DNA of 63,019 bases, counting the filler, from Raillietiella orientalis (lineage: Eukaryota), in assembly GCA_036172245.1 (NCBI GenBank). It is 14 parts of 14 records of this genome, joined end to end, with 100 filler letters (N's around TTAATTAATTAA, not from the genome) between each part and the next. Parts side by side here need not be neighbours in the genome. Positions count along the whole stretch, not along the records: positions 4,782 to 9,353 come from JAYWIR010000339.1; 13 more parts are not named here. One strand, 5' to 3'. The notes under the pieces are model-generated. The model saw only the letters and a list, made by a program, of their open reading frames with translations, was not told the origin of the DNA and searched no databases. This document shows positions 1-48,469 of the stretch, one piece after another. The position numbers and the translations under genes were made by a program. Numbering within the stretch: position 1 is the stretch's first letter; each line of letters opens with the position of its first letter.

Positions 1-1342
1 CGAGTTGTGCGCCGCCATGCGTGCGCGCAACTTGGTCAGCTGACTCGTTCTCCAATCCCCGATCTTCTCCGTTTCGGCGATCTGGAAAGTAACCTTCCAT
101 TGTGCCGCGACGTCACTGCAGAGATGTTCCCTTAGGGTAGGCAGTACCGCAGCAAGGGAGGTTCTTTGTGCCCACGCTCTCCTTCTGGGATCCTCGATGA
201 TTTCTCGGAGCGTGGGGTGGGCGTGCGGCCCGAACAGAGCTATTCGCTCGTGTTTGCGGGCTCCGCTCCTGAGTGATCGCCCACGTGCGGACGGTTTCCT
301 GCAGCCAGGCAGGACCGTTCGAGGGGCGTACGAGGATCCGCTCGGAGTTGATCTTCACGAGCTTGGCCGCCCTTCGAAGCTGAAGTCCGCAGTGGCAGAT
401 GTGGCTTCGGAGTGAAAGGTAGGACGAGAGTCTCGCATTGCCAGTGGCCCGCTCGACGAGGAGACGTGTAGGGAGGCACCAGGCGGTGCACCAATTTTTG
501 GCCATAAAGGCAACACTCCGGAACTGAAGCTGAAGCTCCAGCCGCTCCAGCGTCAGGAGGCCAAGACCGCCGTCGCGATGCGGAGCGCAGAAGTCCGCGA
601 GACGGACTCGGGGCCTCTTTCTGCCCCAAAGGGCGATCCTCAGGAGGTCCTTCGTCCTCTTCTTTGACTCCGCTGAGGGGGGGCAAACAAAAAGCAAGGG
701 GCGAAGGAGGGGTGCCGCAAACGCGTTCCACGCAGCGGCCCGTTACTGCAGGTAGAACCTGCCGTCCTGGAACGAACCGATCGTCGCCTGAGCCTTCTGA
801 AGGCAGCCGGACCACGCTTCCGCAGGGGAGTAGTCCCCCAACGGCACACCGAGGTACTTGAAGTACCTCACCGTGGGGATCCCCAAACGGACCCAGTCCT
901 GCTGCACTGCCCACCCCGCTCTGACTGGCACTACGGACGACTTCGCCCTGTTCACCGTCAGTCCTGTTCCCGGACGCAGCAGGTCCAAGAAGTCCTCGAC
1001 CGCCGAGGCCGGGTTGGACATAGGCAGCAGCAGCAGAAGGTCGTCCACGTATACCGAAACCGCAGGCCTACCGGGACAATCCCATGGCAGGTGCGCCAGA
1101 GTCTCCCTGTACGCTCTCAGCACCAATTCGAAATAGGCGCTGAATAGCGAGGGACTGAGGCTGTCTCCCTGCCGTACGCCGTGTCGCCTTGGTACGCCGT
1201 ACACGGTGGATACACTAAAAAACACATTAATAAGCTCGTCGCGGCAGCTGGAGCGCAGGTGGGCCAGCAAAGAGTCCGGAAATCCCAAGCGTTCAAAAAG
1301 CTCCAAAAGGAGATTCTGGTCCACGCAATCGAATGCTTTGTG
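1..1342 (-). mobile_element. L1/Tx1-like ORF2, RT 3' half (family F), interrupted at HKAFD by element A
   Basis: ORF 743-1324 has GVRQGDSLSP, YVDD and FKYLGV; ORF 113-697 has RDGGLGL. Closely similar to the element at 38225-41006. Confidence 0.9.
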
Positions 1343-1360
1343 AAGTCGAAAGCTTTACGT

Positions 1361-2756
1361 CGGCTAGAGCGGACGTGTTTCCCCGGTGCTCCTCGTGCCG
1401 GGAACCTTCCCATGTGTAGGCTCCGTGTGTGTTGGTGGTGGATTAGGCAGCAATGCCTGACGCGACCACCAGTACGTGTCAGGGGGCGGTGGCAACGTCG
1501 CCTCTAGAGAAGGTGGAGTGCCAGGAGGCGGCGGCAACGTCGCCTTCAGTGGCGAAGGAGGTAGGGGCGTCCGCTCCCACAAAACCGGTCCCCGCTGCAG
1601 CGCGGGCGTGGAGCGCCGTCGTGTCGGCGCCATCGCCTGCAGCCGCGGCGGAATTATCTGCCTATGTGGAAGAGGGGTATAACCCATCACTATTCTACAA
1701 GGTAGGAAATTTGTATTCTGCTGAGAGTGCGCGCGCCTTTTCGAAGGGGATGCGCGCTCTCGATGTTAAAGAAGAGGAGCTCTGCGCTATGACCATTCGT
1801 AGCGGGGGGCAGTACGTAGAGGTGATCTGCAAACATGCAGATCTGGCCCAACGTCTGCTTAAAACCCCCGTGGTCATGGGGACACGCAGGCTCCTTCCCG
1901 TTACGGCGGACCAAAGTATGGTGGTCCATTTTTTAGGAGTTACCGCGCGGATGCGGAAAGAACAGTTACGCGCCGCGTTGGGAAAAGAAGGCACGGTCCA
2001 AGCAGCATGGACTAAGCCTAGTCCTTTCGAGGACTATACCACAGTTCAGTGCGGCCTCACGGCTGCCCGTGTAACCGTTCGGGAGGGCTCTACCCTTCCC
2101 CACAAACTGGTGGTCGGTGGAGAAAGCGTCGACCTCTGGTACGTGGGGAAGCCCAAATACTGTGGCTTCTGCAACACGTCGGCACACCTCAAAAGGAGGT
2201 GCCCCAACGTACGGTGCCTGGTATGCGGGACAATGCGCCACACGAAGGAAGTGTGTCCACAATCCGCTGTGCGCGTGGTTTCCGCGAGGAACCTAAAAAA
2301 ACGAGCGCGGCTGCTTCAGAAAAAACTGGCGGCGAAGGCTGCCGCTCAAGCTGTGCCACCCACTCCCGTGGTCCAGGCCTCAGCCGACACCCCGACAACG
2401 AATGCCGAAAAGATTGACAAAAGCGGTCAGGTGTTGGAATGGCAAGAAGTCACAGCGAAAAAGAAAAAAAAGTCGAAGAAAGAACGACGAATCTAAAAAA
2501 AGCTCGCCTACCAAAATAAAAAACAGCAGGTTAGCGAGAATTTAAAAGAATGCAGCGTCGTGGTGGAACGCGTCCCCGCCGAACGCCGCAAGGTAGAAAT
2601 CGCTGGTACCGACGAGCAACCCACTGTTGAAAATGTCAACAGCGTGGGGAGCGAACCGGCGGAAGCGTCCGTCATCGAGACCGTGATCGATGACGCCGCC
2701 TTCGAGCGTGCGGCGGAGGAGCTGGCTGCATCGTTGCAGCCAGACCCCTTTAAGGC
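1361..2756 (+). mobile_element. L1/Tx1-like element family A: 5'UTR + ORF1, interrupted by element B
   Basis: 5'UTR GGACGTGTTT... and ORF1 are shared with the copy at 34672-36578. Homology to that copy stops at 2756. Confidence 0.9.
1453..2496 (+). CDS. Family A ORF1 (gag-like nucleic-acid-binding protein), premature stop at 2494-2496
   Basis: Two CCHC knuckles, CGFCNTSAHLKRRC and CLVCGTMRHTKEVC, followed by a lysine-rich tail. Homologous coding sequence continues past the stop. Confidence 0.8.
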   Translation: MPDATTSTCQGAVATSPLEKVECQEAAATSPSVAKEVGASAPTKPVPAAARAWSAVVSAPSPAAAAELSAYVEEGYNPSLFYKVGNLYSAESARAFSKGMRALDVKEEELCAMTIRSGGQYVEVICKHADLAQRLLKTPVVMGTRRLLPVTADQSMVVHFLGVTARMRKEQLRAALGKEGTVQAAWTKPSPFEDYTTVQCGLTAARVTVREGSTLPHKLVVGGESVDLWYVGKPKYCGFCNTSAHLKRRCPNVRCLVCGTMRHTKEVCPQSAVRVVSARNLKKRARLLQKKLAAKAAAQAVPPTPVVQASADTPTTNAEKIDKSGQVLEWQEVTAKKKKKSKKERRI

Positions 2757-4681: not shown

Positions 4682-4781
4682 NNNNNNNNNNNNNNNNNNN
4701 NNNNNNNNNNNNNNNNNNNNNNNNNTTAATTAATTAANNNNNNNNNNNNNNNNNNNNNNNNNNNNNNNNNNNNNNNNNNNN
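4682..4781. other. Artificial contig linker (N44-TTAATTAATTAA-N44), 13 copies
   Basis: Identical 100-nt spacer with stops in all six frames. Other copies start at 9354, 14019, 18572, 23119, 27649, 32151, 36579, 41007, 45433, 49853, 54263 and 58651. Contig lengths fall from 4572 to 4269. Confidence 0.98.
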
Positions 4782-5240
4782 TCACCGCCGCGGGCGGCAC
4801 CCTCGGCATCGCCGCCGCAGGAGCGACCTTCCCCGCCGCGAGCACGACCTCCGCCGTCGTCGCCGCGGGCACGACCCTTGGCATCGCCGCCGCCGGCGCA
4901 GCAAAGCCCGCCGCGGGCGCGATCCTCGGCATGCCTCTCGCAACCTCGCCGTTGCCGCACGTTACCTCCATGGCTTCCATGGGGGACGATGGCCTCACCA
5001 CTCCTCCAACTCCAGATGCCTGCATCCTGGCAGCTGTTCCGGCTGCTCGGGACGACTGCAGGATTTCCACCGTGGAATTCTCGGCGCTGCTGCTGCTGAT
5101 GATGATGGTCCCGGGTTGCACTCTTTCCACACTGGCGTTCACTCAAACACTTGCCCTCTCAGGGCACTCAAAAATTGCCTTGGCAGTGGTTTTAAACACT
5201 GCCTTGGCGGGGTATTGGGTATAGTTTTAAACTAGCAATA
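4782..5240 (-). mobile_element. Probable 5' end and N-terminal low-complexity ORF of an unidentified element
   Basis: Open frame with repeated AAAMPRV units, preceded by an AT-richer leader that abuts ORF1 of the + strand element. No diagnostic domain seen. Confidence 0.35.
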
Positions 5241-5244
5241 ATCA

Positions 5245-7697
5245 CGCCTCCCTTTCGTTCAGCGGCGGCGATACCGCCCGTGCGCAAGGCTCTCGCGATC
5301 GCTAAAGGAGTTGCTTAAGCCTGCGTGGAGGCAGCACTTCAAGAGGCAGCCAAGGCAACGCCTCTTACATCCGTGGGAGCAGCGCCATCTCAGGATGGCA
5401 AAGATAACTGCGACGCGAAGGAAGACGGCTGGATGCAGGCGAGAAAGATCATTCGAAAGAAACCATCAAGGTCTTCGCAGCTCTGTGTGAAGGTGAGTGG
5501 GCGAAAGAAACCCGCGAAACCTTCCCAGAAAAAGATTGCGATTCTTTCCTCCTGCGCAATCGTCCTCTCGCGGCTGGAGCGGGAAGCTGCTGCTGCGGCT
5601 AAGAGGACGAAAGTCCCAGGCGCAGTTGCAGAAAGCGCTAGGAAACAGGCAGCGAACGATCTCCCTAATTCCGGGAAACAGCAGCAGTGCCTGGCAAGCG
5701 CTCGACTGTCGGATTCCGATCCAGAGTCCGACAGAAAGAGCACACAGCGCGACAACCGCCCGAAACCGCGCAATCGCCTCCCGAAGATCCGCAAGCGCGT
5801 GGTTGCCGAGGAGAAACTGTTGTTGGAGAGCAAAGAGGAGGAAAAGGACCTCACCTCTGAGCTATCGGCAACAAGCAGTGCGGCTTCGAATGGAGATGTC
5901 CAGTCTCCGAGATCGACCGCTCTGTCTCGTGACGACTCGCCGGACAAGGCGAGAAATCTGTTCTCACCTTCCCAGCCTTAATGCAGGAAATCGTCTCTTT
6001 CCGTCGATACAGCGTAGCCTGTTGGAACGTCAATGGGCTGCGCAGGGACGGAAAGAGGCGCGACGTGTCAGACACCCTGCGACATTTCGATTTGGCGATC
6101 CTTCAGGAGATGCATTACATCTCCGATGAGGAGGTTGCCGAAATCGAACAGCGCGCGGGTGGCACCCTGTACTGGCGAGAAGGTTTTGCACAATCGTGCG
6201 GAGTCGGGTTTCTCGTTAATAGTAGGATGGCGGGAGCAGTGCGCAGCGTTCGATTCGACAAGGAAGGCAGAAGAGGCCAACTTGTACTCAAGTGATCAGA
6301 TTCAATCGACCTCGTCGTAACGAACGTCTACGCGCCGAGCGGCTTTCATCGGCGTGTCGAAAGAATCGAGTTCTTCGACGTGCTGAAGAGCCAATGGCTC
6401 AGAAACTCCGGAGCCAGAGTGGCGCATCTCGTCGCAGGGAACTTCAACGTCCACCTGCTTTCCAACGAGACCCGATCCCTGGCGGAACGGTCGCGGGTGG
6501 AAGAAGCATGCGCGTTGGTGCACGCGTGTAACTTGGAAGCCGGCGAGCCTGGACTGGAAAGGAACGTGGATCACCTCTACCTCGATGAACACCTACTCTC
6601 GCGAGTGGGAAGGAGAGGCAGGGTGCCGTCCACGTTATCGGACCATGATAGGCTGGAGTTCGAGCTACTCCCGCCTGGCAAGGGACCTCCAAACAACGTT
6701 TAAATTATGCCGGCGGATTGGCTGAGTCACCCGGAAGCGGCGAAGCATCTTCGCCAGTTCCTTTGCGGCTCTGCCATCCGGGAACTCGCAGACTGGGACC
6801 ATCTTAAAAGATCGGTTCGCGAGTTTTGCGACCGGTTCCCCCTGCAACTGCTACCACGCGGCTTCGGGGAAGGCGTGGCCAATAGCAGAGCATTTCTGCA
6901 GGCGTGCACCTTCTCGAGACGTGCGGAAGTCCGGCAACTCGCAGAGTACAAGGCGAGGGCCGAGCGCCAGGTCTGGCAGTCTGGAGCGGCTATTCTGCTC
7001 GACGACCAAGGCCGGGAATGCACGGCTCCTGCCGAAGTGCGGCGAGCACTAAAGCGTCACTTCTCCTCGCTCTACGCTAATTCCCCGACGGAAAGAGTCC
7101 TCTCCGAACTACTTTTGCCGCGGGCTGCACATGGCATCGGCGAGGAGGAACGCGATCGTCTCGACGAGCCCTTCACGTTGGAGGAAGTTTCTTCCGCCAT
7201 CGCAGGACTCAAGAGACGGGAGACGCCAGGTGAGGACGGACTGCCCGCGGAGTTCTATCAGAGCTTCGCGGCGGAACTCGCCCCACTGGTTCCTAGAATC
7301 TCGACGCTGATGAGGGTGACGGGCGATGTCCCTTCTTCCTTCCGCTCAGAAAGGGTGCGTCTCCTTCCGAAAGGAGGGGATCTGCGCCAACTCAACAAAT
7401 GGCGTCCGATCACATTAGTGAATAAGGACGTCAAGTTGTTTTCGAAGCTGTGGGTCACGCGCTTAGGGAAAGTCGCGGAGTCCCTGGTAAGCCCGGAGCA
7501 GTCTTACGCTGTACCGGGTAGATCAATGGATGCGAACCTTCTTTTCGCGCGCACCTGGTGGCAGCTCCAAGAGCGCGTTGCAGCGGATAGCCGAACAGCG
7601 GCAAGACCTTCTGCCGACTGCGTGCGCCAGTGCGAACGGACGGAAGAAAGGCCGGGAGCCTTGACACCAGCAGTAGATTTGCACAAAGCATTCGATT
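5245..7697 (+). mobile_element. L1/Tx1-like element family G: ORF1 C-terminus, APE endonuclease and RT N-half, broken at DLHKAFD
   Basis: Motifs ACWNVNGL, ILQE, AGNFNV, SDH, PGEDGLP, WRPITLVNKDVK and VDLHKAFD. In-frame stops at about 6293 and 6701. Confidence 0.92.
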
Positions 7698-7699
7698 TT

Positions 7700-9353
7700 C
7701 ACCCGGATTTCGCCGGGGCGTTTATTATAAAACAAACATCTACAAAGACGTGCAGTGGCTGGACCATTGCTCCAGCCACGCACGAAGAAACACAGAGCCT
7801 GCCGGGTCACCGGTTTGCAGACCGGTACGGTCCACCACGGCAGCAGGGGGAAGGGGGAAAAACAAAAAACAAAACAAAAAAGAAAAGAAAAGTTGGGAGG
7901 GTAAGGGAAGGGATCACAGTTGCTGGTGGGGCCGTTGCATCCTTTGCAGGATGCCGGCAAGCTCCTTCTGTATTTCTGAATCCAGGTGGGGCCATCGGGA
8001 CGCCCTCCTCTGGAACTGGAAGGCTGGCTGGATGGCACCCTGGTCGCGTTGTCCTCTCTAGGCCTTGCCCCAAGCGGTGACGATCCCGCGTAGGCAGCAC
8101 AAAGCTGCTAACGAGGCCGCTGGCCGAAGGGCGTCGGCAACGAAGAAGACTTTCAGTGCGTCCCTGGGGTTGCGGCAGGGGATTCCGATGGCCGCGGCAA
8201 AGCGAAACCAAAGGGGCCGAAGGGCAACACAATTGACTAGCAGGTGGGGGAGGGACTCCCGTTCCCCACACCTGACGCAATTGGGGTCCACCGCTCCCCA
8301 GGTCCAGTGGTGTCGGCGGGCGTTGCAGTGAAGTCCCCAGTGCTGCAACAGGAGAGCCGACTCCTGCCATTTTAAGGGGAGGGCGGAAGTGTTCATGAGC
8401 ACCGGGGGCCACTTCAGATGTTCAATGGGAACATCGAGCAGCGCGCCCCAACGCAGAAGTCCATTGGGAGGCGTACTCGGGGTCGCAGCGTCTGTTAACT
8501 GGCCCGTCTTCCACTCTCCTATCTTCTTCTCCTTTCCGGAGATTGTTACTGTAACCACCCACTTCGCCGCAACATCGCTGTCCAGATCTTCCATCAGGGA
8601 GGGCAGCGCAGCAGCGAGGGCGGTTCTTCCTGCCCACGCTCTCTTCTTTGGATCCTCCAGGATCTCGCGAAGCGTGCAACTTCTGTAACCCCCAAACAGG
8701 AACCTTCGTTCCTGTTGGGAGCGTTGCATGCCGAACTGTCCCCACGTTCGAACGGTTTCCTGTAACCAGGCACTACCGTTAAACGGGCGACAGGTGAGCA
8801 ATCCTGGGTTTTTCCGATACAGCGCAGCCACCCTCCTTAGCTGGAGTCCGCATCGGTTGACGCGGCGACGGAGTGCAAGAAACGACGTCAGTCCCGTCTT
8901 GCCGGTGGCTTGCTGGAGAAGGATACGTGCAGGGACGCACCAACAGGTGCACCACAACTCTGGAACGAGTGCCGACAATCGGAACTGGAGCTGAAGCTCC
9001 AGCCACTCCAGCATCAGGAGGCCCAGACCACCATCCCGACGAGGAGCGCACAAGTCCTTTAAGCGGACTCGGGCCCTCCCGTTGCCCCAAAGGGCGATAC
9101 GGAGGAGGTCCTTTGTCCGCTTTTTAATTCTCTCTGTAAGGGGGCAAACGAAAAGCAGGGGGCGGAGGAGAGGAGCCGCGAACGTGTTCCAAACCGCGGC
9201 CCGTTAAGGCAGGAAAAACCTGCCGCCTCGGAACGGGCCGATCGCCGTCTCTACTTTTTATAGGCAGCCGGACCACGCTTCCGCAGGGGAGTAGTCCCCC
9301 AACGGCACATCAAGGTACTTGAAGTACCTCACCGTGAGCATCCCCAAAGATCG
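7700..9353 (-). mobile_element. L1/Tx1-like 3' half with complete 3' end (family A', probably the 3' part of A)
   Basis: RRDGGLGL, zinc finger CVRCGERESLPHLLVNC, T-rich 3'UTR, AATAAAC + terminal hairpin ending at 7700. Confidence 0.92.
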
Positions 9354-9453
9354 NNNNNNNNNNNNNNNNNNNNNNNNNNNNNNNNNNNNNNNNNNNNTTA
9401 ATTAATTAANNNNNNNNNNNNNNNNNNNNNNNNNNNNNNNNNNNNNNNNNNNN

Positions 9454-9685
9454 CGGCGCGCTCTGTTGTTCTACGCGCGTACAAGGAGGAGTAATAGTCC
9501 CGCAGGATGCGGTTTATTCTCGCCGGTGCTGAGCATTCTTGGCCTTGGGCGTCCAGCAAGCTGGCCGACCCGGATTGCCAGGTCTGTCGCTCAGCCCCAG
9601 CTTTATACTCCGCCAGGAGTCGAACGTCGGGAGTCCTAGAGTAAAGACGGGCGTGGTGGTATGCCCGGTCGTTCCTCAGCCCAGC
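9454..9685 (-). mobile_element. ORF2 fragment (endonuclease-RT linker)
   Basis: Minus strand reads GLRNDRAY...EYKAGAERQTWQSGSASLLD...YYSSLYAR, homologous to the other ORF2s. Confidence 0.8.
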
Positions 9686-10353
9686 GTCCGCCGTACACCG
9701 CGCAGTCAGGAGCTACTTCTCCTCGTTGTACGCGGAGGAGCCCACGGAACGCAGTCTCCCCAAGCTGCTTCTTCCGACGGGCAACCCTGCTATCGACGAG
9801 GAGGAACGCGCCAGATTGGATTGGCCCTTCACGGCGGAAGAAGTATCTTCCGCCATATGCGGGCATGAAGAGGCGTAAGGCGCCAGGTGAGGATAGTCTG
9901 CCTGCTGAGTTCTTCCAGTGCTTCGCGGCGGAACTCATCACCCTTGTGCTGAGGCTTTGTGCGCTGATGCGAGAAACGGGCAATATCCCGACCTCGTTTC
10001 GCTCAGCAAGGGTGCGTCTCTTGCCGAAAGGCGGAGACATGCGCCATTTAAGCAACTGGCGTCCCATCACCTTGGTGAATGCGGACGTCAAGTTGTTCTC
10101 CAGGCTGTGGATCGCGCGCCTAGGCAAAATCGCTCGATCCGTGTAAGTCCGGAGCAGTCTTACGCTTTTCCCGGGCGGTCCATGGAGGCGAACCTGTTCT
10201 TCGCGTGCAAGTGGCTAGAGCTGCAACGTTGCGTCACGCACAACAGCTAGGCAACCGCATCTGCGGCTGCCGAGGCTAGGCGTCGCTGCATTCGGCCTGA
10301 GGAAGCGCCGGGTGCCTTGGAAGTCGGGGTCGACCTCCGCAAGCCGTTCGATT
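9686..10353 (+). mobile_element. 5'-truncated RT N-half (G-like family), broken at DLRKPFD
   Basis: KAPGEDSLP, LLPKGGD, WRPITLVNAD and GVDLRKPFD, with frameshifts. Confidence 0.88.
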
Positions 10354-10355
10354 TT

Positions 10356-13300
10356 CACCCGGATTTCGCCGGAACGTTTATTCTAAAATAAACATTTACA
10401 AAGACGTGCGGTGGCGGGACCATTGCTCCCTCCACGCACCAAGAAACGCAGAGCCTGCCGGGTCACCGGTTCGCAGACCGGTACGGTCCACCACGGCAGC
10501 AGGGGGAAGGGGGCAAAACCAAAAACAAAACAAAAAAGAAAAGAAAAGTTGAGAGGGTAAGGGAAGGGATCACAGTTGCAGGTGGGGCCGTTGCATCCTT
10601 TGCAGGAAGCCGTCAAGCTCCTTCTGTATTCCTGGATCCAGGTGGGGCCATCGAGATGCCCTCCTCAGGAACTGGGAGGCTGACTGGATGGCACCCTGGT
10701 TGTGTGGTCCTCCCGTAGCCTTGCTCCAGGCAGTTACGATCCCGCGTAGGCAACACAAAGCTGCTAACGAGGCCGCACGCCGAAGGGCGTCGGCAACGAA
10801 GAGGGCTTTCAGAGCGTCCCTGGGGTTGCCGCAGGGGATTCCGATGGCCGCGGCAAAGCGAAACCAAAGGGGCCGAAAAGCAGCACAATGCACTAGCAGG
10901 TGGGGGAGGGAATCCCGTTCCCCACACCTCACGCAATTGGGGTCCATTGCTCCCCAGGTCCAGTGGTGTCGGCAGGCGTTGCAGGGGAGTCCCCAGTGCT
11001 GCAACAGGATTGCCGACTCCTGCCATTCAAAGGGGAGGGAGGAGGTGTTCATTAGTACCGAGGGCCACTTCAAACGTTCAATGGGAACGTCGAGCAGAGC
11101 GCCCCAGCGCAGAAGTCCATTGGGAGGCGTACTCGGGGTCGCAGGGTCTGTTAACTGGCCCGTCTTCCACTCTCCTATCTTCTTCTCCTTTCCGGAGATT
11201 GTTACTGTAACCACCTACTTCAACGCAACATCGCTGTCCAGATCTTCCATCAGGGAGGACAGCGCAGCAGCGAGGGGGGTTCTTCCTGCCCACGCTCTCT
11301 TCTTTGGATCCTCCAGGATCTCGCGGAACGTGCAACTTCTGTAACCCCCAAACAGGAACCTTCGTTCCTGTTGGGAGCGTTCCATGCCGAACAGTCCCCA
11401 CGTTCGAACGGTTTCCTGCAAATAGGCACTACCGTTCAAAGGGCGACAGGTGACCAATCCTGGGTTTTTCCGGTACAGCGCAGCCACCCTCCGTTGCTGG
11501 AGTCCGCATCGGTTGACGCGGCGACGGAGTGCAAGAAACGACGTTATTCCCGTCTTTCCGGTGGCTTGCTGGAGAAGGAGACGTGCAGGGACGCACCCAC
11601 AGGTGCACCACAACTCTAGAACAAGTGCCGAAATTCGGAACTGGAGCTGAAGCGCCAGCCGCTCCAGCGTCAGGAGGCCCAGACCACCGTCCCGACGAGG
11701 AGCGCACAAGTCCTTTAAGCGGACACGGGCCCTCCCGTTTCCCAAAAGGGCGATACGAAGGAGGTCCTTTGTCCGCTTTTTAATTCTCTCTGTGGGGGGT
11801 CAAACAAAAAGCAGGGAGCGGAGGAGAGGAGCCGCGAACGTGTTCCAAACCGCGGCCCGTTCAGGCAAGAAAAACCTGCCACCTCGGAACGGGCCGATCG
11901 CCGTCTCTACTTTTTGGAGGCAGCCGGACCACGCTTCCGCAGGGGAGTAGTCCCCCAGCGGCACACCATGGTACTTGAAGTACCTCACCGTGGGGATCCC
12001 CAAACGGACCCAGTCCTGCTGCCCTACCCACGCCGCACCAACTGGCATCACGGACGACTTCGCCCTGTTCACCCTAAGCCCGGTTCCCCGATGCAGTAGG
12101 TCGAAGAAGTCCTCGACCGGCGCAGCCGGGGTGGACATAGGGAGAAGCAGCAGAAGGTCGTCCGCGTATGCTGAAACGGCCGGAGTACCGGCACAGTCGT
12201 GCGGCAGGTGCGCCAGAGTTCCCCTGTACGCTCTCAGTACCAACTCAAAGTAGGTACTGAAGAGCAAGGGGCTCAGGCTGTCTCCCTGCCGCATCCCACG
12301 CCGCACCGGCACGCCGTGCACGGTCTGCCCGCTGAAAGTAACGTTGATAATCGCGTCGCGCTAGCAGGAGCGCAGATAGGACACTAATGTGGCCGGGAAG
12401 CCCAAGCGTTCCAGAAGCTCCAGAAGGAGATTCTGGTCGACGCAATCGAATGCTTTCCGCAAGTCGATTGCGACCGCAAGGACTCGCTCCCCCACCCGAC
12501 CATCCAAGCCCTTGCCGGCGCACGCACCGGAATTCCCGCTGCGCACCAAGCTCCTTTCATTTTAAAGCTCTAGCCAAGTGGAAGCGTGGAACAGGTTCGC
12601 CTCCATGCTTCGCCCGGGAATAGCATATGCCTGTTCCGGGCTGATGAAGATGTTGGCAACCCGTCTTAAACACTCTGCCCAAACCTTACCTAGCAACTTG
12701 GCGTCCGCATTCACTGTTGTGATGGGACGCCAGTTGTTCATGCTCCTCAGATCTCCTCCCTTAGGGAGGAGCCTCACCTTTGCCGAACGAAACGAGACGG
12801 GAACGTCACCTGTTTCGCGTATCAGCAAGGTGAGTTGCTGTACCAGGGGGGTAAGCTCATCCGCGAAAGTTTGATAAAACTCCGCGGGCAGGCCGTCCTC
12901 CCCTGGAGCCTTTCGCCTCTTGAGCTTTCCGATGGCCGAGAGGATCTCGTCCATCGTGAAAGGCTCGTCGAGGGTCTTTCTCTGCCCCTCCCCGATCGCT
13001 GGAGCGCCTTCCGGAAGCAGGAGTCGTGAGACGTTCCTCTCCAGGGGTGCCCTGGCATACAGGGAGGAGTAGTAACTCCGCAGCAGGCCGCGGATTTGGG
13101 CAGGTGCCGAGTGCTCCTGGCCCTGATCGTCCAGTAAGCTGGCCGATCCGGACTGCCAGGCTTGCCTCTGGGCTCCCGCTTTGTATTCCTCCAGCATGCG
13201 GATGTCGGAGGTCCTCGCGTAACGACGGGCATGCAGGTAGGAACGTTCGTTACGGACCCCGGTCCCAAAACCCGTATGTAGGCGGTGCAGAGGGAACTCG

Positions 13301-14018
13301 TCGCAGAACTCCTGGACCGACCGCTTGAAGCGGTCCCAATCCTGGAGTGTCCGCAGCCTGAAGCTCCGTATGAACTTGCGGAGATGTTCCGCCGCCTCCG
13401 GGAGCTTCAACCAGTCCCTTGGGAGACGCCACGTTGACGACGGGGGCGCCCTGTCGCGCGGATGGATCTCGAGGACTATCGGGCGATGGTCGGACAGCTC
13501 GCACTGTAACTTTCCGCGCCTGCCCACGCGAGGGCACAGGTGCTCGTCAAGAAACACGTGGTCAATGCTCTCTTCCATCCCCGGTGCACTGGCCAACAAA
13601 TTACAGGTGTGCACCGCCATGCACACGTCGTTGACCAGGTCACGCTCAGGATTCTGCCCATCGGCTTTCAGGCGAACGCTGAAATCGCCTGGAGCTAGAT
13701 GAGCATTCCGCACGCCTGCTTTGGTCAGCCAGTCGCGCCGGAGGGCAAGGAAAGACTCTTTCCTCGCCCTCCTGGTGATCAGGTCCGTGCCGCTCGGTGC
13801 GTACACGTTCGTGACGATCGGATCGATCGAGTCGGAACACCTGAGAGTCAGCTGGCCGACACGGCCGTGATCGTCGAACCGCACGCCCCGAGCCGCGGCC
13901 TCGACGGCTGGCCGAAGCAGGTAGGCGACACCGTAACTTTTCGGTTTCCCACACCTATACCATAGCCGCCCTCCGGAGATCCGTTCGATCTCTTCCGCTT
14001 GTTCTGCAGGGATCACGT
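10356..14018 (-). mobile_element. Near-complete decayed ORF2 and 3' end (family A')
   Basis: Endonuclease (TNVYAP, GDF, DH, SDH), RT (DLRKAFD, QGDSLSP, YADD), zinc finger and terminal hairpin. Several stops and frameshifts. Confidence 0.93.
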
Positions 14019-15165: not shown

Positions 15166-15231
15166 TCAAGATACTTTAATGAGTATAGCGATTTGCGGTT
15201 TCGTAGGTAGTTATTGGCTTTGAATTATAGA

Positions 15232-17578: not shown

Positions 17579-17599
17579 TCCACTGTTAAGGGATGAGAG

Positions 17600-17900: not shown

Positions 17901-17932
17901 TTTATAATTGGAAGTTATTAGTACTGCATATA

Positions 17933-32586: not shown

Positions 32587-34670
32587 CACCCGGCTGCGCC
32601 GGGGCGTTTATTACAACCTATCCGGGAACAGAGTTTTCGGACAAAGGGGAAAACAAGAGACGAAGGGGGTGGGATCCCCGACACGCAGGTGGGTATGCTG
32701 AAAGTCCGCAACGGGAGGGAGGATACCACAAATACACTACTATAAAAAATAAAAATAAAAATATGGAAGGCAGGGTACAGGGGTCTTTGGTGAGTCCGTT
32801 CCTTCCTTTCAAATCCGGCGAGGGATGCCGGCGATCTATCTCCTTACGTCCTGTGGAAGATGGGCCCACTCGGCAGCTGACGACATGCTTGCGCTGGCTA
32901 ATCCGGTGGGCTGACGAACGATGGCCAGCTTCTCCAACTCTAGGTGGACCTTGTCGATCGCGCGAGTGCAACACGCGGTTGCAACGACAGCACCAAAAGA
33001 CAGGCCGCCTGGCGTGAACAAGCGGCGCATCAAGTCCCTAGCGGCGTCCCCCTGGTGCAGGAGAGCTGAGGCCAGCCTCCGCCAAAGTCCTTGGAGGGAA
33101 CCGCAGTCCAAAAGCAGGTGCGGGAGCGTTTCCAATTCCCCGCACCGCTTACAGTTTGGGGAGACAACTCCCCCGGAAACAAGGTTCGTGCGATGGTTGG
33201 AGTGAAAACCCCAATGCACCACCATGATGACGTCCTGCTTCCACGAAAGGGGGAACACAGAAGTGTTCAAACACGAGGGAGGGACCACAAGTTCTTCGGG
33301 GTGCACACTCAAGTGTTCACTCCACCGAAGGAGTCCCTTCGAGATGTGGCGAGGCGTGGCGGCGTCTGCCAGCTCGCAAGTCCTCCAGCCGCCAATAGGT
33401 AGTGTTGTTCCTGCAATGGTGCAGGCGACCTCCCAACTCGCCGATTCGCAGCTGTCATCTCTTGCCCTGAGGGCTGACAGTGCGTCGGCTAGGGGGATGA
33501 GGGCCAGGCCGGTCCACTTCTCCTGGCTGCTGCAGACCTCATCCACCGTGCAGTACGGGGAGAGGTGAAGGCAACGGAGTTCAAGGAGGGAAACATCCTG
33601 GTGCTTTGCCCAGCCATACAACGGTTCCTGCCGCCGGGCTTGAAAGTTCGTTAGGCGGCAGGAGATCCATTCCTGGGCTGCCAGGAGCCGGTAGAGGGGT
33701 TTCAAGGGGAAACCGAAACTTGTCGTGGGGTGCTCCGTGTGCGGACGCAGCGACAGAAGTCCGTCGCTGCCGGTGCAACGCCGCAGGAGCAGGCGCGCAG
33801 GAGCGCACCACGGAGTGGACAAAACGTTGTCGCACAGGACCAACATTCGAATCTGCACCTGCAGCTCGATTCTCTCCAGCGTCAGGATGCCTAATCCAGG
33901 ATCCCGACGCGGAGCCGCCAAGTATTTCAGACGGATCCTGGACCTCGCAGGACCCCACAGAGCGTTCCTAAACAGGCTGTGCGCCTGGAGTTTCGCCGAG
34001 TAGGGGGGCGGGCTAACAAAAAACAGGGGTCGCAAAAGAGGAACAACAAAGGTGTTCCATATCGCGGCCCGCTCCGAAAGGAGGAACCTGCCATGCTGGA
34101 ACGGGCTCAGCGCACTCGTAGCCTTCCGAAGTCAGTCCGACCACACTTCCACTGGGCTGATGTTCCCCAGCGGAACGCCCAGATATTATGTAACCAAGCG
34201 GTCAGGATCCCCAGGCGGATCCAGTTGGACTGCCCCTCCCACGCCGCACCAATGGGTACGACCACGCTCTTGCTCCTATTTACGCTCATGCCCGCTCCCC
34301 GGCGGATCAGCTCGAAGAAATCCTCGAGACTGGACGCCGGGGTGGTCATGTGTAAGAGGAGAAGCAGGTCGTCAGCATAGGCCGCCACGGACGGCGTTCC
34401 TGGACAAGAGCTCGGCAGGTTGGCCAGCGTCATCCTGTACGCCCTCAGCACCAACTCAAAGAAGATGCTGAAGAGCAACGGGCTTCAACTGTGGCCCTGC
34501 CTGATGCCTCGCCGCACCGGCACGCCGCACACGTGGCAGCCGCTGGAAGAGATGGAAATCAGAGCGTGGCGCCATCAAGCGCGAAAATACGCCACGAGTT
34601 GCACCGGGAGACCGAGGCGTTCCAGGAGCTCCAACAAAAGATCCTAATTTACGGAGTCGAACGCCTTGCG
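32587..34670 (-). mobile_element. Divergent family E: RT 3' half and 3' end, interrupted at RKAFD by element A
   Basis: RKAFDSVN, GIRQG, YADD, CKRCGELETLPHLLLDC and terminal hairpin at 32587-32612. Confidence 0.9.
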
Positions 34671-34671
34671 T

Positions 34672-36578
34672 GCCCCAGGGTGGACGTGTTTTCTCGGTGC
34701 TCCTCGTGCCAGGAAGTCTCCCCCAGTGCAAGCGTCGTGTGGTTCGGTGGTCGATCAGGCAGCGATGCCTGACGCGACCACCAGGAATGGCCAGGGGGCA
34801 GCGGCAACGCCGCCCCCAGAGGCGATGGAGAGCCAAAGGGCGGCGGCAACGTCGCCACCAGAAGCGATGGAGGTGGGGGCGTCCGCCCCCACAGAATCGG
34901 TGTCCGCTGCAGCGGGGGCGTAGAGCGCCGTTGTGTCGGCACCATCGCCTGCAGCCGCGGCGGAATTGTCGGCCTATGTAGAGGAGGGGTACAACCCCTC
35001 ATTGTTCTACAAGGTAGGCAATTTATATTCTTTAGAGAGCGCGCGCGCCTTCTCGAAGGGCATGCGCGCTCTCGATGTGAAAGAGGAGGAGCTCAGCGCT
35101 ATGACCATCCGCAGCGGGGATCAGTACGTTGAGGTCATCTGCAAACATGCAGAGCTGGCCCAACGACTGCTTAAAACCCCCGTTGTGATGGGGACGCGCA
35201 GGCTCCTCCCCACTACGGCGGACCGCAGCATGGTGGTCCACCTGTTAGGCGTCACCGCGCGAATGCGCAATGAACAGGTTCGCGCCGCTTTGGAACATTT
35301 CGGAACGGTCCAAGCGCATTGGACGAAAGTAAGTCCTTTCGAGGACTACACGGGGCTGCAACACGGCCTCACTGCTGCTTGCGTGACCGTTCGAGAGGGC
35401 TGCACTCTTCCCCACAAACTGGTGGTCGAAGGCGAAACCGTCGACCTCTGGTATGTGGGGAAGCCGAAATACTGTGGCTTCTGCAATACGTCGGGCCACC
35501 TCAAAAAGAGGTGTCCCAATGTGCAGTGCCAAGTATGCGGAACCATGGGACACACGAGGGAGGTGTGCCCTAAAGCAGCAGTGCGGGTGGTTTCCAAGAG
35601 AAACCTTAAAAAACGCGCCCCGCTTCTGCAGAAAACGCTGGCGGCGAAAGCTGCCGCGAAGGCTGTGCCACCCGCTCCCAAGGCCCAGGCCGCACCCGAG
35701 ACCCCGGCGACCAACGCCGAAAAAGTTGAGATAGCCGGCCAGGAGACTGGGTGGCAAGTGGCAACGGCCAAAAAATCAAACAAGGAGAGGAGGATGGAAA
35801 AAAAAATCGCCTACCAACAGAAGAAGAAAGAGCAGGGTAGCGCGATAATTAAAGAGTAGAGCGTCGTTGTCGAACGCGTTCTCGATGTTGCCGAACGCTG
35901 CCAGAAAGAACTAGCCGCTACCGACGACAACCCCTCTGTTGACTTTGTCAACAGCGAGGGGAGCGAGCCGGCGGCGGCGTCCGTCATCGACACCACCATC
36001 GATGACGTAGCCTTCGCGTGAGCCGCGGAGGAGCTGGCAGCCTCGTTGCAGCAAGAACCCTCCAAGGCTGGCAAGAAGGCCGTAAGGCGTCCGGCCTCCC
36101 CTCAGGAGTCCCCCACTTCCGACCCCGAGGTGGAGACCGGAAGCGCAGCCTCCGTTTCCACGGCACCGCGCAAGAAGGCTGGACGTAAGTCCACAAAGCC
36201 AAGAAAGCTCGTCTCCCCCGTCGAAGGGGAAGAGATGGCTTCCGCAAGCGAGGGTCCCATGAGCGTGGGAAACTCTCGGGACCCATCGCTCGAAAGACTC
36301 CCACGCGCGGACACGGAGAGGATGGAGGGGGTGGAGTCCGAACAGGTGCCTCAGGTGCCTGAGAAGGCCGAAACCCCCATGGACATCCCGCCTGCCTCGC
36401 AAGAGGAGGGCTCCCCCACACCTTAATCTTCCCAGCATTAATGCCGGGAATCTCCTCCCGCCGTCGTCTGCGCATCGCCGTTTGGAACGTGAACGGCATG
36501 ACAGACGCCGGCAGGAGACGAGACATGGCCGCCTTTCTGGAGTCCTACGCCCTTGCGCTGCTGCAGGAGATCCACGCG
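34672..36578 (+). mobile_element. Family A: 5'UTR, ORF1 (34765-36426, with stops) and ORF2 start (36441)
   Basis: MPDATT start, two CCHC knuckles, then IAVWNVNG...LLQEIH. Confidence 0.92.
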
Positions 36579-38224: not shown

Positions 38225-41006
38225 AACCCGGGTGCGCCGGGACGTTTATTCTCACGAAGAAACATATACAACCTGTGACTGGACCAGTAGTTTAGCCACG
38301 CTCTGGAAAGATATAGCTTGCCGGGCTACCGGTGCACTGACCGGCGCGGTCGACCTAGACAGCAGAGGGGAGGGGGAACGAAACAAAAAGAAAACAAAAA
38401 ATAAAGAAAAATCAGGGAGGGAGCGGGAAGGGATCAGAGTCTGCTGGGAGGGTCCGTCATCCTCTGGAGGATGCCGACAAGCTGTTTCTGCTTGTGTGGT
38501 GCCAGATGGGGCCATCGCGTTGCCATGTTGAAGAAACGGGCGGCATACACGTTGGCATCCCTGTCGCTGGATCCTCCCGTCGCTTTGCTCCATGCCACGA
38601 CGATCCCGCGTAGGCAGCACAGGGCTGCAAGCGAGGCCGCTGGAGGCAGGGCGTCACGGACGAAGAGGGGGCGCAAAGCGTCTCTGGGGTTGCGTCCGGG
38701 GATCCCCAGGGCTGCGGCAAAGCGTTCCCACAAGGGACGGAGGGCAAAAAAATCCACTAACAGGTGGGGGAGGTATTCCCTCTTCCCGGACCTGACACAA
38801 TTAGGGTTGACACCCCCCCGCGTCCAGTGGTGTCGGCGGGCGTTGCAAGGAAGCCCCCAATGCAACACCAGCAGTGCCGAATGTTGCCACTTCATGGCGA
38901 GGGTGCGCAAGTCCATGAGCACCGGGGGCCACTCGAGATGTTCCTCTGGAACATCCAGTAGCTCTTCCCAGCGCAAGAGTCCATTTGCGGTGGTCCTCGG
39001 GGTCGCAGCGTTGGTGAGCTGACGCGTTCTGCAATTCTTGATCTTCTTTGCCCTGCTGAAGATCTTGGCAGTAACCTCCCATTGTGCCCCGACGTCGCTG
39101 CCCAGATGTTCCCGTAAGGTAGGTAGTACCGCAGCAAGGGAGGTTCTGTGTGCCCACGCTCTCCTTCAGGGATTCTCGATGCTTTCTCGGAGCGTGAGGC
39201 GGGCATGCGGCCCGAACAGAGCTATTCGCTCGAGTTGCGGGCTCTGCTCCTGAATCATCGCTTACGTGCGGACGGTTTCCTGCAACCAGTTAGGAACGTT
39301 CGCATGGCGTACGAGGATGCGCGCCGAGTTGTTCTTCACGAGTTTGGCCGCCCTCCGAAGTTGAAGTCCGCAGTGGCAGATGGGGCTTTAGAGTTCAAAG
39401 TAGGACGAGAGTCCCGCATTGCCGGTGGCCCGCTCGACCAGGAGACGTGCAGGGAGACACCAAGGTGTGCACCAATTTTTTGCCATAAAGGCAACAACTC
39501 GGAACTGGAGCTGTAGCTCCAGCCGCTCCAACGTCAGGAGACCCAGACCACCATTCCGACGAGGAGCGCACAAGTCCGAAAGACCGACTCGGGGCCTCCC
39601 TCTGCCCCAAAGGGCGATCCTCAGGAGGTCCTTGGTCCTCTTCCTAGACTCCGCTGAGGGGGGGCAAACAAAAAGCAAGGGGCGAAGGAGGGGGGCCGCA
39701 AACGCGTTCCACGCCGCGGCCCGTTCCTGCAGGTAGAACCTGCCGTCCTGGAACGGGCCGATCGCCGCCTGAGCCTTCTGAAGGCAGCCGGACCACGCTT
39801 CCGCAGGGGAGTAGTCCCCCAACGGCACACCAAGGTACTTGAAGTACCTCACCGTGGGGATCCCCAAACGGACCCAGTCCTGCTGCCCTGCCCACGCCGC
39901 TCCGACTGGCATTACGGACGACTTCGCTCTGTTCACCGTCAGTCCTGTTCCCCGACTCAGCAGGTCGAAGAAGTCCTCGACCGCCGCAGCCGGGGTGGAC
40001 ATAGGCAGCTGCAGCAGAAGGTCGTCCGCGTACGCCGAAACCGCAGGCGTACCGGGACAATCGCACGGCAGGTGCGCCAGAGTCTCCCTGTACGCTCTCA
40101 GCACCAATTCGAAATAGGCGCTGAAGAGCACGGGGCTGAGGCTGTCTCCCTGCCGTATGCTGTGTCGCACCGGTACGCCGTACACGGTGGATCCACTAAC
40201 AAAAACATTAATAAGCGCGTCGCGCCAGCTGGAGCGCAGGTAGGCTAGCAAAGATACCGGGAAGCCCAAGCGTTCCAGAAGCTCCAAAAGGAGATTCTGA
40301 TCGACGCAATCGAATGCTTTATGCAAATCGACTGCGACCGCGAGGGCACATCTCCCCCCCCGACCATCCCGTCTTCCACGGACGGACGCACCGGAATTCC
40401 TGTTGCTTATTATGCTCCTTCCTTGTTGGAGCTCTAACTATGTGGAAGCGTGTAACAGGTTCGCCTCCATACTTCGCCCGCGAACAGCATATGTCTGTTC
40501 CGAGCTGATGAAGATGTTGGCGACCCGTCCCAGGCGCTCTGCCCACAGCGTGGCTAGCAACTTGGCGTCCGCATTCACTATTGTGATGGGACGCCAGTTG
40601 TTCATGCTCCTAAGGTCTCCTCCCTTAGGGAGGAGCCGCACCTTTGCTGAACGAAACGAGGGGGGAACGTCACCTGTTTCCCGGATCAGCAAGGTGAGTT
40701 GCTGTACCAAAAGGATAAGCTCAGCCGCGAAAGTTTGGTAAAACTCCGCGGGCAGGCCGTCCTCCCCTGGATCCTTCCGCCTCTTGAGCTTTCCGATGGC
40801 CGAGAGGATCTCGTCCATCGTGAAAGGCTCGTCAAGGCTTCTTTTCTCCTCCTCCCCGATCGCTGGAGCACCTTCCGGAAGCAGAAGTCGTAAGACGTCT
40901 CGCTCCGGAGGCGCCCTGGCGTACAGGGAGGAGTAAAATTTTCTCACTATCCCGCGTTTCTGAGCGGGAACCGAGTGCTCCCGGCCTTGGTCGTCCAGCA
41001 AGCTGG
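38225..41006 (-). mobile_element. Family F ORF2 (RT + zinc finger) with complete 3' end
   Basis: PGEDGLP, DLHKAFD, QGDSLSP, YADD and terminal hairpin at 38225-38250. Confidence 0.93.
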
Positions 41007-45532: not shown

Positions 45533-48469
45533 GGTTTCGGCGGCGGGGCTCGCAACAAACGCGCGTATTTGCACGCACGTCGTCACGAGAGGAACCCCAA
45601 TGTCCTTCGCCTGGTCGAATATCGCGCCGGAGCCGAGCGACAAGCCTGGCAATCCGGGTCAGCCAGCATGCTGGATGACATGGGCCGGGAACGTTCGTCC
45701 CCGTCTGCGGTACGGAATCTCGTGCGGTGTTTTTATTCCTCCCTTTACGTCAAAACACCACCGGAACAAGACGCCTCGCGGCGATTGCTCATGAGTTGTT
45801 CAGTGGCGATAGGGGAGGAGGAGAGAGAAAGCCTCGATGAGCCTTTCGCGACCGGTGAAATTCTCGCCGGTATCAAAAGGCTCAAGAGACGTAAGGTGCC
45901 AGGGGAGGACGGCTTGCCTGCGAAGTTCTTTCAGAGTCTCGCGGAAGAGCTCGCCCCCCTGGTGCTCGAGTTGTCAAGGCAAATCCGGGACGAAGGCGAT
46001 GTTCCCGCCTCGTTTCGGTCAGCCAGGGTGAGGCTCCTCCCGAAGGAAGGAGACCTCAGAAAACTTTGCAGCTGGCGTGCGATCACGATTGTGAACACGG
46101 ACGCCAAGTTGATTGCCGGGCTGTGGGCTTCGCGATTGGGGCAGGTGTCCAATTCCATAATTAGCCCGGAGCAGACTTACGCTGTTCCCCGGCGAAGTAT
46201 GGAGGACAACCACTTATTCGCGAGCACATGGATGCACGCGCAGCGGAGTAATAAAGGGAAAGGGAAAATTTGCAACCCTACTTTGGGGCCGCCAGTAGGA
46301 CAGGGAAGGGACCCTCATGCGGGAAAGGTGGTATTAGGGATCGTAGTCGACCTCCATAAGGTATTCGACTGTGTTGACCAGGAACTCTTCTTGAAGCTCC
46401 TGGGTCGCATGGGCTTCCCACCCTCCTCGATTACCTACGTGCGCTCTTGCTGGCGGAACGCGATAATCTCAATTACTTTCATTGGACAAAAGGTGTATGG
46501 CGTGCCGGTGCGGCCGGGCATAAGGCAGGGCGACAGCCTCAGCCCCCTGCTTTTTAGCACCTACTCTGAGTTGGTGCTGAGAGCGTACAGGGTGACTTTG
46601 GCCCCTTTGCCGAGCTCGTGCCTCGGCACGCCAGCCGTAGCGGCGTATGCCGACGATCTTATGCTCCTCTTACCTATGTCCACCCCGGCTAAGGCGGTCG
46701 GAGATTAATTCGACCTGCTGAGCCGTGGGGCCGGATTACAGGTTAACAGGGCGAAGTCGTCAGTGTTGCCAGTTGGAGCGACGTGGGCAGGGCAGCAGGA
46801 CTGGGTCCGTCTGAGTATCCCCACGGTGAGGTGCATCGAGTACCTCGGTGTGCCGTTGGGGGACTTCTCCCCTGCGGAAGAGTGGTCTAGCTGCCTCCAG
46901 AAAGTCGAGACGGCGATCGGCTGGTTCCTGGAATGCAAGTTTTACTTGCCGTAACTGGCCGCGGTTTGAACGCCTTCGCTGCCCTCATCCTCCAACCCTT
47001 GCTTTTTGTTTGCTTCGCCCCCGTGGAATCTAAAAAGCGGACGAAAGACCTCCTCCGCATAGCTCTTTGGGGCAAGGGGAGTCCCCGAGTCCCTTTAAAG
47101 GACTTGTGGGCTCCGCGTTGGGACGGCGGTCTCAGCATCCTGACGCTGGAGCGCGTGGAAATCCAGCTGCGATGGCGGACCCTCGCCATCGCAGCGAAGA
47201 TGTGGAACACCGCTTGGTGCATTCCGGCCCGCCTCCTTGCCAGGCGTGTGTCCCGGTGCGATGGACTCGCGTCTTTTCTTCTCAGCCGTGGCCGGAAGAT
47301 GCGAAGATGCGTCCTACTGCTCGGGCGCATGGCAACCCTGGCAAAGGAGAACGAGTAGATGGTTTGTAGCCCTGCGAACTCCTCCGCTTGGCTGGAAGAG
47401 ACTGCTGGCACCTGGGCTAAGCAGAACCAAAGGTGCGAAGACCGGATGAACTGCCTGCGAGTCGGCTTATACGCCCGCCGCATTCTCCGTGAAATTCTTG
47501 AATTTCCACCGAGTTGCACGTGGGCAGAAGGCACACTCCTTGTTACGGCGATGCCCTTCCTACAAAGGGCGCTTCACAAAAGCTAGAAGCCACGGTGGCA
47601 AGTCTGCTGCCGTATCGCAGGCAGAGAGAAGATGATGAGCGGCTGGACCATGGGAGAGTTTACAGATGCAACGACCCCTAGTCTCCAGCCGCGTGGATTA
47701 AGAAGATGGGGCGAGCTGCTCGGCATTCGATTGAATGACCTGAAGTGGCCCCCGGTTCTACTTGGATACAGGATTCTCCCCTTGAAGTGGCAAGAATCGG
47801 CGCTTCTGTGGCTGCATTGGGGTCTACTTTGCAACGCGCGCCGCTTCCACTGGACGCGGGGAAGAGTAAATCCTGCGTGTGCCAGGTGTGGGGAGCGGGA
47901 GTCGCTCCCATACCTCTTAGTTGAATGCCCTGCCGTCCGGATTCTTTGGGATCGTCTGAAAACGGCCCTCCGGATACCGGATGGTGGCAATGTTGAATGT
48001 ATCCTCAGTCTTGTCTTCGTGCGGGACGCTCTCAGTCCAGCCGCAGCCCTGGCAGCACTTTGATGCATTCGTGGTATCGTGGCGACCTGGAGTGAAGCCG
48101 AAGATTAAGACTGCATCGTGAGGGACGTCATCGAGTATGCTCCGCGCTTTCTGCAGAGAGCTACCTAATGGCTCCATCTAGGAAAGCTGAAAATGGAACT
48201 AGAAGCCATCCTGCAAAGGATGGGCGCTCCCAGCAGTTTTCTGTGATCCCTTCCCGGCCCTCCAAACTTTTTTTTTTGTGGTTCGTTTTTCTATTTTATT
48301 TTAATTTGGTTTTTTCCCCCATCCCCCTCCACTGCCGAGGAGAGCCACACCGGGCTGCGTCCCGGTGTCTCGGCAGTTCCGGTATTGCGTGGGCGTCAGA
48401 GGCGCCTTGTACCACGTTCTGTATTGACCGTTGAAATGTTTTTAATAAACGTCCCGGGGTATCCGGGTG
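45533..48469 (+). mobile_element. Family D ORF2 (RT + zinc finger) with complete 3' end, decayed
   Basis: DLHKVFD, QGDSLSP, YADD, CARCGERESLPYLLVEC and terminal hairpin at 48444-48469. Confidence 0.93.

Follow-up and report, generated by a model that had tools for sequence, protein, structure and literature searches.

To our knowledge, the described targets of site-specific long interspersed elements (LINEs) are host multicopy genes, simple repeats, telomeres, and a few DNA transposons. In site-specific LINEs of the R1/R2 type, the 3′ junctions are exact to the base and lack poly(A), the 3′ end is structured, and the 5′ junctions vary and carry extra bases. A preference for other transposable elements (TEs) is established according to the accessible part of PMC6719617 (Tx1L in Tx1D of Xenopus; Tourist elements), and the accessible part of PMC4494074 places crocodilian SINEU-3/Tx1 in Mariner-N4_AMi, an insertion into another TE. 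Nested insertion into existing copies is described for Zepp in the available sections of PMC8226300, and those of PMC12810828 have CNL1 of Cryptococcus inserting into its own copies with a specificity stated to be undefined. Here, we report a presumed LINE family, A/A′, from a 63,019-base stretch of the Raillietiella orientalis assembly GCA_036172245.1 (the window, meaning all of the DNA analyzed). Four ends of A/A′ adjoin reverse transcriptase (RT) genes of related LINEs at the same K-A/P-F-D codons of RT motif A, always in antisense orientation. We consider it likely that A/A′ is a sequence-specific LINE of the apurinic/apyrimidinic endonuclease (APE) type that nicks the sense strand of motif-A DNA in the RT genes of its relatives and, through target-primed reverse transcription, inserts itself in antisense orientation.

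The window comprises 14 contigs (c1 to c14), sorted by length from 4681 down to 4269 bases and joined by 13 spacers (N44-TTAATTAATTAA-N44; e.g., 4682-4781 and 9354-9453). Features on different contigs have no physical linkage, and the four junctions lie on four separate contigs. Nine contigs (c1 to c3 and c7 to c12; GC content, 0.53-0.61) are pieces of non-long-terminal-repeat retrotransposons, with Pfam matches to RVT_1 and Exo_endo_phos in their element copies. The contigs referred to most often have the following bounds.

c1, 1-4681; c2, 4782-9353; c3, 9454-14018; c8, 32251-36578
c9, 36679-41006; c11, 45533-49852; c12, 49953-54262

Two 3′ ends of A′, on the minus strand, adjoin plus-strand RT genes at the same base (...TTCGAT-TTT-CACCCGG; 7696/7700 on c2 and 10352/10356 on c3). 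Both junctions fall directly after the D codon of K-A/P-F-D in the plus-strand RT frame (...VDLHKAFD on c2, ...VDLRKPFD on c3), and the host RT is followed on each contig by TTT and then by the reverse complement of the element terminus CACCCGGATTTCGCCGG(GG/AA)CGTTTATT. The 26-base string across the junction, TTCGATTTTCACCCGGATTTCGCCGG, occurred twice (7691-7716 and 10347-10372, 0 mismatches), and none of 100 shuffles contained it, even when 3 mismatches were tolerated. The hosts, junction, and inserts on these contigs are listed below, with open reading frames abbreviated as ORFs and untranslated regions as UTRs.

5981..7696, plus strand: c2 host (H2) ORF2, APE and N-terminal part of the RT up to KAFD, with 2 in-frame stops
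7685..7696, plus strand: K-A-F-D codons AAAGCATTCGAT of the c2 host RT, the last host bases before A′
7697..7699, minus strand: TTT (AAA on the element strand) between the host and the A′ terminus, where empty sites read GAT/TGC; either a short A tail or partly host T
7700..9353, minus strand: A′ copy 1, with the 3′ terminus AATAAACGCCCCGGCGAAATCCGGGTG (7726-7700), 3′ UTR, and C-terminal part of ORF2, reaching the contig end
9694..10352, plus strand: c3 host (H3), a 5′-truncated, degenerate N-terminal part of an RT ending at KPFD (10341-10352)
10356..14018, minus strand: A′ copy 2, with the same 3′ terminus (10382-10356), the whole RT, and most of the APE, with several frame breaks

The ORF2 part of A′ copy 1 corresponds to residues 409-886 of rt887 (at 9347-7923). 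ORF2 of A′ encodes an APE and an RT, both mapped on c3 by tblastn, and then a Cys-rich tail. The letters of the A′ 3′ terminus are ...CCGGCGAAATCCGGGTG and ...AATAAACGYYCCGGCGAAATCCGGGTG.

The other two junctions are 5′ ends of family A. Lying on the plus strand, these adjoin minus-strand RT genes broken at the KAFD codons, at about 1349 on c1 and about 34670 on c8, where the RT frames start at HKAFD (c1, K codon at 1339) and RKAFD (c8, K codon at 34667). Between each RT frame and the plus-strand 5′ end (G)GACGTGTTT... are about 12 to 22 uncertain bases, and the 5′ UTR and ORF1 follow. The flank codons kept at these junctions are at least CAC AAA GCA TTC GAT on c1, and CGC AAG GCG TTC GAC on c8.

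37..1349, minus strand: c1 host (H1), RT from HKAFD (1339-1328) towards the C terminus, 89-92% identical to the c9 element
1350..1371, no strand assigned: 5′ junction on c1, about 22 bases aligning poorly to an uninterrupted relative; these are either additional bases or the beginning of the 5′ UTR of A
1372..2752, plus strand: A copy 1, with the 5′ end (G)GACGTGTTTC..., 5′ UTR, and ORF1 (1447-2493)
32587..34670, minus strand: c8 host (H8), RT running from RKAFD (34667-34656) as far as the host's own 3′ terminus (32612-32587)
34683..36578, plus strand: A copy 2, with the 5′ end GACGTGTTTT..., 5′ UTR, and ORF1, 80% identical to copy 1

A copy 1 is cut at about 2752 by the 5′ end of another element, B, described below. 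Our reading of the window bore out the coordinates and sequences of all four junctions as the initial annotation had quoted them.

Eight RT copies in the window cover the motif, and it is interrupted in four of them (c1, c2, the c3 host, and c8). The remaining four are intact, namely, A′ on c3 (12456), c9 (40320), c11 (46358; KVFD), and c12 (50672). Both A′ 3′ ends (2/2) and both A 5′ ends (2/2) in the window are at the KAFD position, although the sample is small. The empty sites are as follows.

12445..12456, minus strand: KAFD site inside A′ (AAAGCATTCGAT/TGCGT), with the same sequence as the occupied sites on c2 and c1
40309..40320, minus strand: KAFD site of the c9 element
46358..46369, plus strand: K-V-F-D site of the c11 element (AAGGTATTCGAC)
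50672..50683, plus strand: KAFD site of the c12 element (AAGGCGTTCGAC)

The first of these belongs to A′ copy 2, whose own RT is intact at this point (12456-12445). Since the A′ RT carries the same site that A′ occupies elsewhere, self-nesting is possible and expected.

The hosts are independent of one another and represent three RT lineages. In one clade, which includes A′, the c1 host pairs with the c9 element (Kimura two-parameter distance [K2P], 0.09); the c2 and c3 hosts are distant sisters that make up a second, deeply split pair (K2P, 0.40); and the c8 host stands alone (K2P, 0.44-0.50 from all others), a distant lineage with 37-39% amino acid identity to the others in its C-terminal half. 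The c2 host shares 54% amino acid identity with A′ over 485 residues. Upstream of the c2 host RT lie its APE domain, a short basic ORF1, and then a U4 small nuclear RNA (snRNA) gene, and the c3 host is 5′ truncated at about 9694, where it adjoins an antisense fragment of another element. Both of these hosts are without their 3′ parts, a state that LINE 5′ truncation could not produce, and they are therefore targets and not inserts.

Divergence was unequal on the two sides of the junctions. Over the 600-640 bases before the junction, the c2 and c3 hosts were 70% identical (K2P, 0.39), and over the 600-1649 bases after it, their inserts were 91-93% identical (K2P, 0.08-0.09). For c1 and c8, the hosts were 64% identical (K2P, 0.49) and the inserts 80% identical (K2P, 0.23), so that host divergence was 2-5 times insert divergence. 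In a 100-base sliding window, identity was 0.53-0.81 before and 0.85-0.96 after the junction for c2/c3 and 0.56-0.69 before and mostly 0.75-0.90 after for c1/c8. A single nested event that was later copied would be expected to show equal divergence on both sides, and the inequality therefore points to independent insertions.

We regard it as very unlikely that one or two old nested insertions were copied later by segmental duplication or composite-repeat amplification, with the inserts homogenized by gene conversion and no target specificity at all. Such an account could draw on the c2 and c3 hosts being mutual nearest relatives in the window, on a single BLAST high-scoring segment pair that runs across the junction (7059-9348 versus 9715-12004), and on a repeat-rich assembly whose contigs may be consensus-like, but it meets the sharp step at the c2/c3 junction and the differing contexts of these two hosts (one with its upstream APE, ORF1, and U4, the other 5′ truncated in a different antisense element). 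It also meets the c1 and c8 hosts, which are of different lineages (K2P, 0.50) yet broken at the same codons. The four insertions look independent and site specific, and from their sequences they are hard to fit to duplication of one event. The claim of the initial annotation that the hosts are more diverged than the inserts held for the two comparable pairs (c2/c3 and c1/c8), in K2P and in the step in identity, and its preference for independent insertions over one duplicated event gained support from that step, from the three host lineages, and from the different contexts. Its core interpretation, an independent, antisense, site-specific insertion into relatives' RT motif-A DNA, is supported by the site and orientation shared by the four junctions.

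Assembly chimeras formed at k-mers common to repeat families are extremely improbable, even in a fragmentary assembly with contigs of 4.3-4.7 kb that are nearly all repeats. The host KAFD region and the A′ terminus share no long word, two contigs whose sequences diverge by 30% on one side and by 8% on the other carry the same junction, and a 227-base contig of another public DNA run (X1; record 2, covering 7542-7736) bridges the c2 junction with 23 differences and 2 gaps. As it comes from another run, this contig argues against a chimera. Run X1 has a word share of 0.18 and 106 short contigs, 47 of them less than 90% alike.

All 7 element 3′ ends in the window consist of AATAAACG, a CCCGG/CCGGG stem with a loop of 4-6 bases that varies by lineage, and then GTG, and poly(A) was found at none of the 7. 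Shuffle z-scores for the 3′ hairpin folds were modest. All four 5′ ends have GGACGTGTTT in common. Uniform hairpin 3′ ends without poly(A) fit the precise 3′-end recognition typical of site-specific LINEs. Twin priming (5′ inversion) was ruled out, as the complete 3′ terminus, and not an internal point, joins the host. On the element strand, the A′ junction reads ...CCGGGTG-AAA-ATCGAA(T/C)G..., from which it follows that the strand priming reverse transcription was the host sense strand, ending ...TTCGAT.

The mechanism that we propose is drawn by analogy with target-primed reverse transcription in R1, Tx1L, and L1. Its target would be RT motif A DNA, C-R-C AAR SCR TTC GAY (H/R-K-A/P-F-D), in other members of the element's own LINE group. 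The element endonuclease would nick the host RT sense strand just after TTCGAT, and the 3′ OH would prime cDNA at the precise element 3′ end (the CCCGG-loop-CCGGG hairpin, GTG, and about three A), yielding ...TTCGAT-TTT-CACCCGG... in antisense orientation. The other strand would be cut at least 15 bp away, with the H/R-K-A-F-D codons kept in both flanks. The predicted target-site duplication (TSD) is about 15-25 bp, and at least 15 bp if A and A′ are one element, as judged from separate 5′ and 3′ flanks. Read-through RNA of resident copies would contain AUCGAAUGC... and so be complementary to the primer strand; such RNA-primer pairing could explain the base-exact 3′ junction. Each insertion would split, and so inactivate, the catalytic motif of its host. 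The nick position, the TSD, and recognition by the nuclease are what we infer on this analogy.

Several observations weigh against site-specific insertion by A/A′ as set out here. The junctions number only four, each on a separate short contig of a fragmentary assembly, and the window holds no full-length copy, no TSD, and no pair of filled and empty alleles. The bridging contig of X1 may be the same locus in a related strain and not a new event. A metagenome scan with the 3′-hairpin pattern gave 35 loci, which are chance matches (0/35 similar to the window by blastn and tblastn), and the junction-spanning c2 ORF, compared with proteins, gave 1230 candidates, none with an E value of ≤0.001. 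The KAFD 20-mer is not the best-conserved stretch of ORF2 (across the window's four intact ORF2 copies, 14/20 of its columns are invariant, versus up to 20/20 elsewhere), and DNA conservation alone therefore does not explain the choice of site. The c9 element, the closest sister of A′ (73-77% identity over the common 3′ region; RT K2P, about 0.16-0.18), has its 3′ end (...CCCGGGTT) at a non-KAFD flank, so that KAFD specificity either is not common to close relatives or is not absolute. Lastly, the A copies (5′ parts of 1.4-1.9 kb) and the A′ copies (3′ parts of 1.65-3.66 kb) have no overlap and no linking contig and may represent two separate families.

The 3′ end of the c9 element is followed by 60 unexplained bases and then by a plus-strand RT cut at about residue 817 (38166-38252). 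Two candidate identities for the 60 bases were rejected. As a decayed pre-KAFD fragment, they were matched in score by at least 136 of 500 shuffles in every comparison, and as RT C-terminal DNA, they had no detectable similarity.

That A′, known from 3′ ends, and A, known from 5′ ends, are two families with a common KAFD target is unlikely but deserves some weight. Contig c8 ends about 70 bases past ORF1 and c3 starts about 46 codons into ORF2, so that no contig links them; the A copies are at a K2P of 0.23 and the A′ copies at 0.08; and several lineages with conserved termini coexist in the window. On the other side, the site and the orientation are the same, the flank overlap is compatible, and parsimony favors one family. 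We take A and A′ to be the two ends of one element.

Two further places inside LINEs received other elements in the window. Element B, whose 5′ end is AACGTGTTTT/GACGTGTTTT, has an ORF1 with a CCHC knuckle that is homologous to ORF1 of A (44-46% identical).

2753-4681, plus strand: element B on c1
41107-43293, minus strand: element B
52777-54262, plus strand: element B on c12

On c1, the B 5′ end lies inside ORF1 of A (2766). On c12, 13-14 bases, TAAACCTCCAAGAC..., separate a c12-type 3′ end from the B 5′ end after it, and these bases match the uninterrupted ORF1 site of A on c8 at 11 of 14 positions. The B/c12 family thus appears to have used one ORF1 target in tandem, in sense orientation. 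The 3′ ends on c11 (48444-48477, plus strand) and c7 (28100-28133, plus strand) are both followed by GCATCGCC; on c11, this corresponds in antisense to ...FGDA in another element's APE-RT linker, and the c7 flank had no other similarity and no Pfam match. The antisense fragment at the left end of c3 (9458-9694), beside the 5′-truncated c3 host, starts at the matching position (ADAGLRN...). A third specific site may lie in the APE-RT linker, where the TSD would be about 8-9 bp.

Homology might guide targeting in place of nuclease recognition. Sense RNA of the element would pair with the antisense strand of the related RT gene (an R-loop), and the displaced sense strand would be nicked and would prime, which forces antisense insertion. 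The element does carry the same 17 bases as the target (AAAGCATTCGATTGCGT), the primer strand is the host sense strand, and the four KAFD insertions and the two ORF2-linker junctions are all antisense. Yet other stretches are better conserved among relatives than the KAFD region, 4-5 of the 15 bases of A's own site are different in the c8 and c3 targets, element B sits in ORF1 of A in sense orientation, and we know of no precedent; we judge this route improbable, and site-specific recognition by the A/A′ endonuclease is the reading that we retain.

The three kinds of landing site suggest that, in this LINE group, each of several lineages goes to a particular site within other members. A wider reading, which we put forward tentatively as possible and no more, is a guild of LINE lineages living on one another, with common termini (5′ ...GGACGTGTTT; 3′ AATAAACG-CCCGG-loop-CCGGGTG) and a base-specific site for each. 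In such a guild, A/A′ would use RT motif A, antisense; the c11/c7 type and the 5′-truncated c3 host would use the APE-RT linker (...FG/DA, GCATCGCC), antisense; and B/c12 would use ORF1 of A, sense. If true, this would be a radiation of target specificities on the coding sequences of competitors, a reciprocal hyperparasitism that builds nested heterochromatic arrays.

Database comparisons were made with the intact 869-residue RT frame of c12, which had one close relative (P0001, 64% identity) among 5.8 billion proteins; others were at 20-30%, with those ranked next after P0001 at 26-30%. P0001 is uninterrupted through KAFD. The nearest solved structure was human L1 ORF2p (E value, 2e-34), with R2 proteins at 5e-12 or weaker. 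Among the Pfam results for the window, a zf-RVT match was weak (E value, 9e-4). An Atlas search with the homologue P0001 led to a "Transposon TX1" cluster with a score of 0.88, under the tool's lead level of 0.9. Together with the L1 ORF2p structure, the zf-RVT match and this cluster hint at a possible place in the Tx1 clade. The c12 RT frame reads YAYD (50957-50974, plus strand), and five other window copies and P0001 read YADD; from this sequence, the c12 copy is probably without one catalytic aspartate.

The U4 spliceosomal RNA gene beside the c2 host is full length (5154-5291, minus strand; Rfam RF00015, 93.9 bits, model positions 1-138) and sits immediately upstream of the host element in head-to-head orientation. 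The short basic ORF1 of this element (5319-5978) does not resemble the ORF1 of A and B. The position of the U4 gene may be a hint of an association between the c2 host lineage and snRNA genes. Beyond the c8 host's 3′ terminus, in head-to-tail arrangement, come the apparent 5′ UTR and ORF1 start of another element (32251-32612, minus strand; ATG near 32440). Head-to-tail and nested LINE arrangements occur on c1, c2, c3, c8, c9, c11, and c12, and there are also arrays beside satellites.

The remaining contigs (c4, c5, c6, c13, and c14) have GC contents of 0.39-0.43, versus about 60% for the TE contigs. Satellites with a 277-bp unit fill c5 (18672-23118), c6 (23219-27648), and c13 (54363-58650), the one on c6 being only about 71% identical to that on c5, and c14 (58751-63019) is a satellite with a 180-bp unit. 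Contig c4 (14119-18571; GC content, 0.385) is unannotated and without repeats; two ORFs tested had no Pfam match, and no tRNA was found.

Site-specific LINEs serve naturally as models of programmable, RNA-templated insertion and of the ways in which selfish elements reach niches where they do no harm. If A/A′ inserts as proposed, its target could not easily mutate away, since the amino acids are essential, and every insertion would disable a competitor, which predicts self-limiting nested arrays. It would also offer a compact nuclease-target pair (an APE domain and about 15 bp, C-R-C-AAR-SCR-TTC-GAY) and a clear example in which the conflict sets transposon against transposon and not against the host. 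We found no description of a LINE that targets the RT catalytic-motif DNA of related LINEs in a literature search that had most subscription journals and Repbase Reports outside its reach.

Among known systems, A/A′ resembles Tx1L/Tx1D and SINEU-3, in which, by the accessible parts of the sources given above, APE-type LINEs or mobilized short interspersed elements insert at one sequence inside another TE family, a multicopy safe target. In those accounts, the targets are unrelated nonautonomous DNA transposons, whereas here the target is RT motif DNA of related LINEs, with the element's own lineage included, and each hit, unlike those of Tx1L and SINEU-3, would inactivate a potential competitor. 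Zepp/ZeppL of green algae and CNL1 resemble it in self-insertion and in nested or tandem clusters, and the window is likewise nested. The available sections on Zepp and CNL1 describe no defined target, in contrast to the base-exact, antisense site common to diverged lineages found here, and the poly(A) tail by which the Zepp lineage is recognized was seen at 0/7 of the window 3′ ends. R1/R2 and the LINEs of ribosomal DNA, snRNA genes, and microsatellites (R1 clade, Tx1 clade, and restriction-like endonuclease elements such as Utopia) likewise use conserved multicopy targets, according to the accessible part of PMC4640811; the targets of the R1/R2 type are host RNA genes or simple repeats and not transposon genes. 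A/A′ has the marks of a target-specific APE-type LINE, an ORF2 with APE and RT and copies flanked by the same target position. We rate a site-specific LINE with a TE target as known and the target class, RT-motif DNA of related LINEs, as new.

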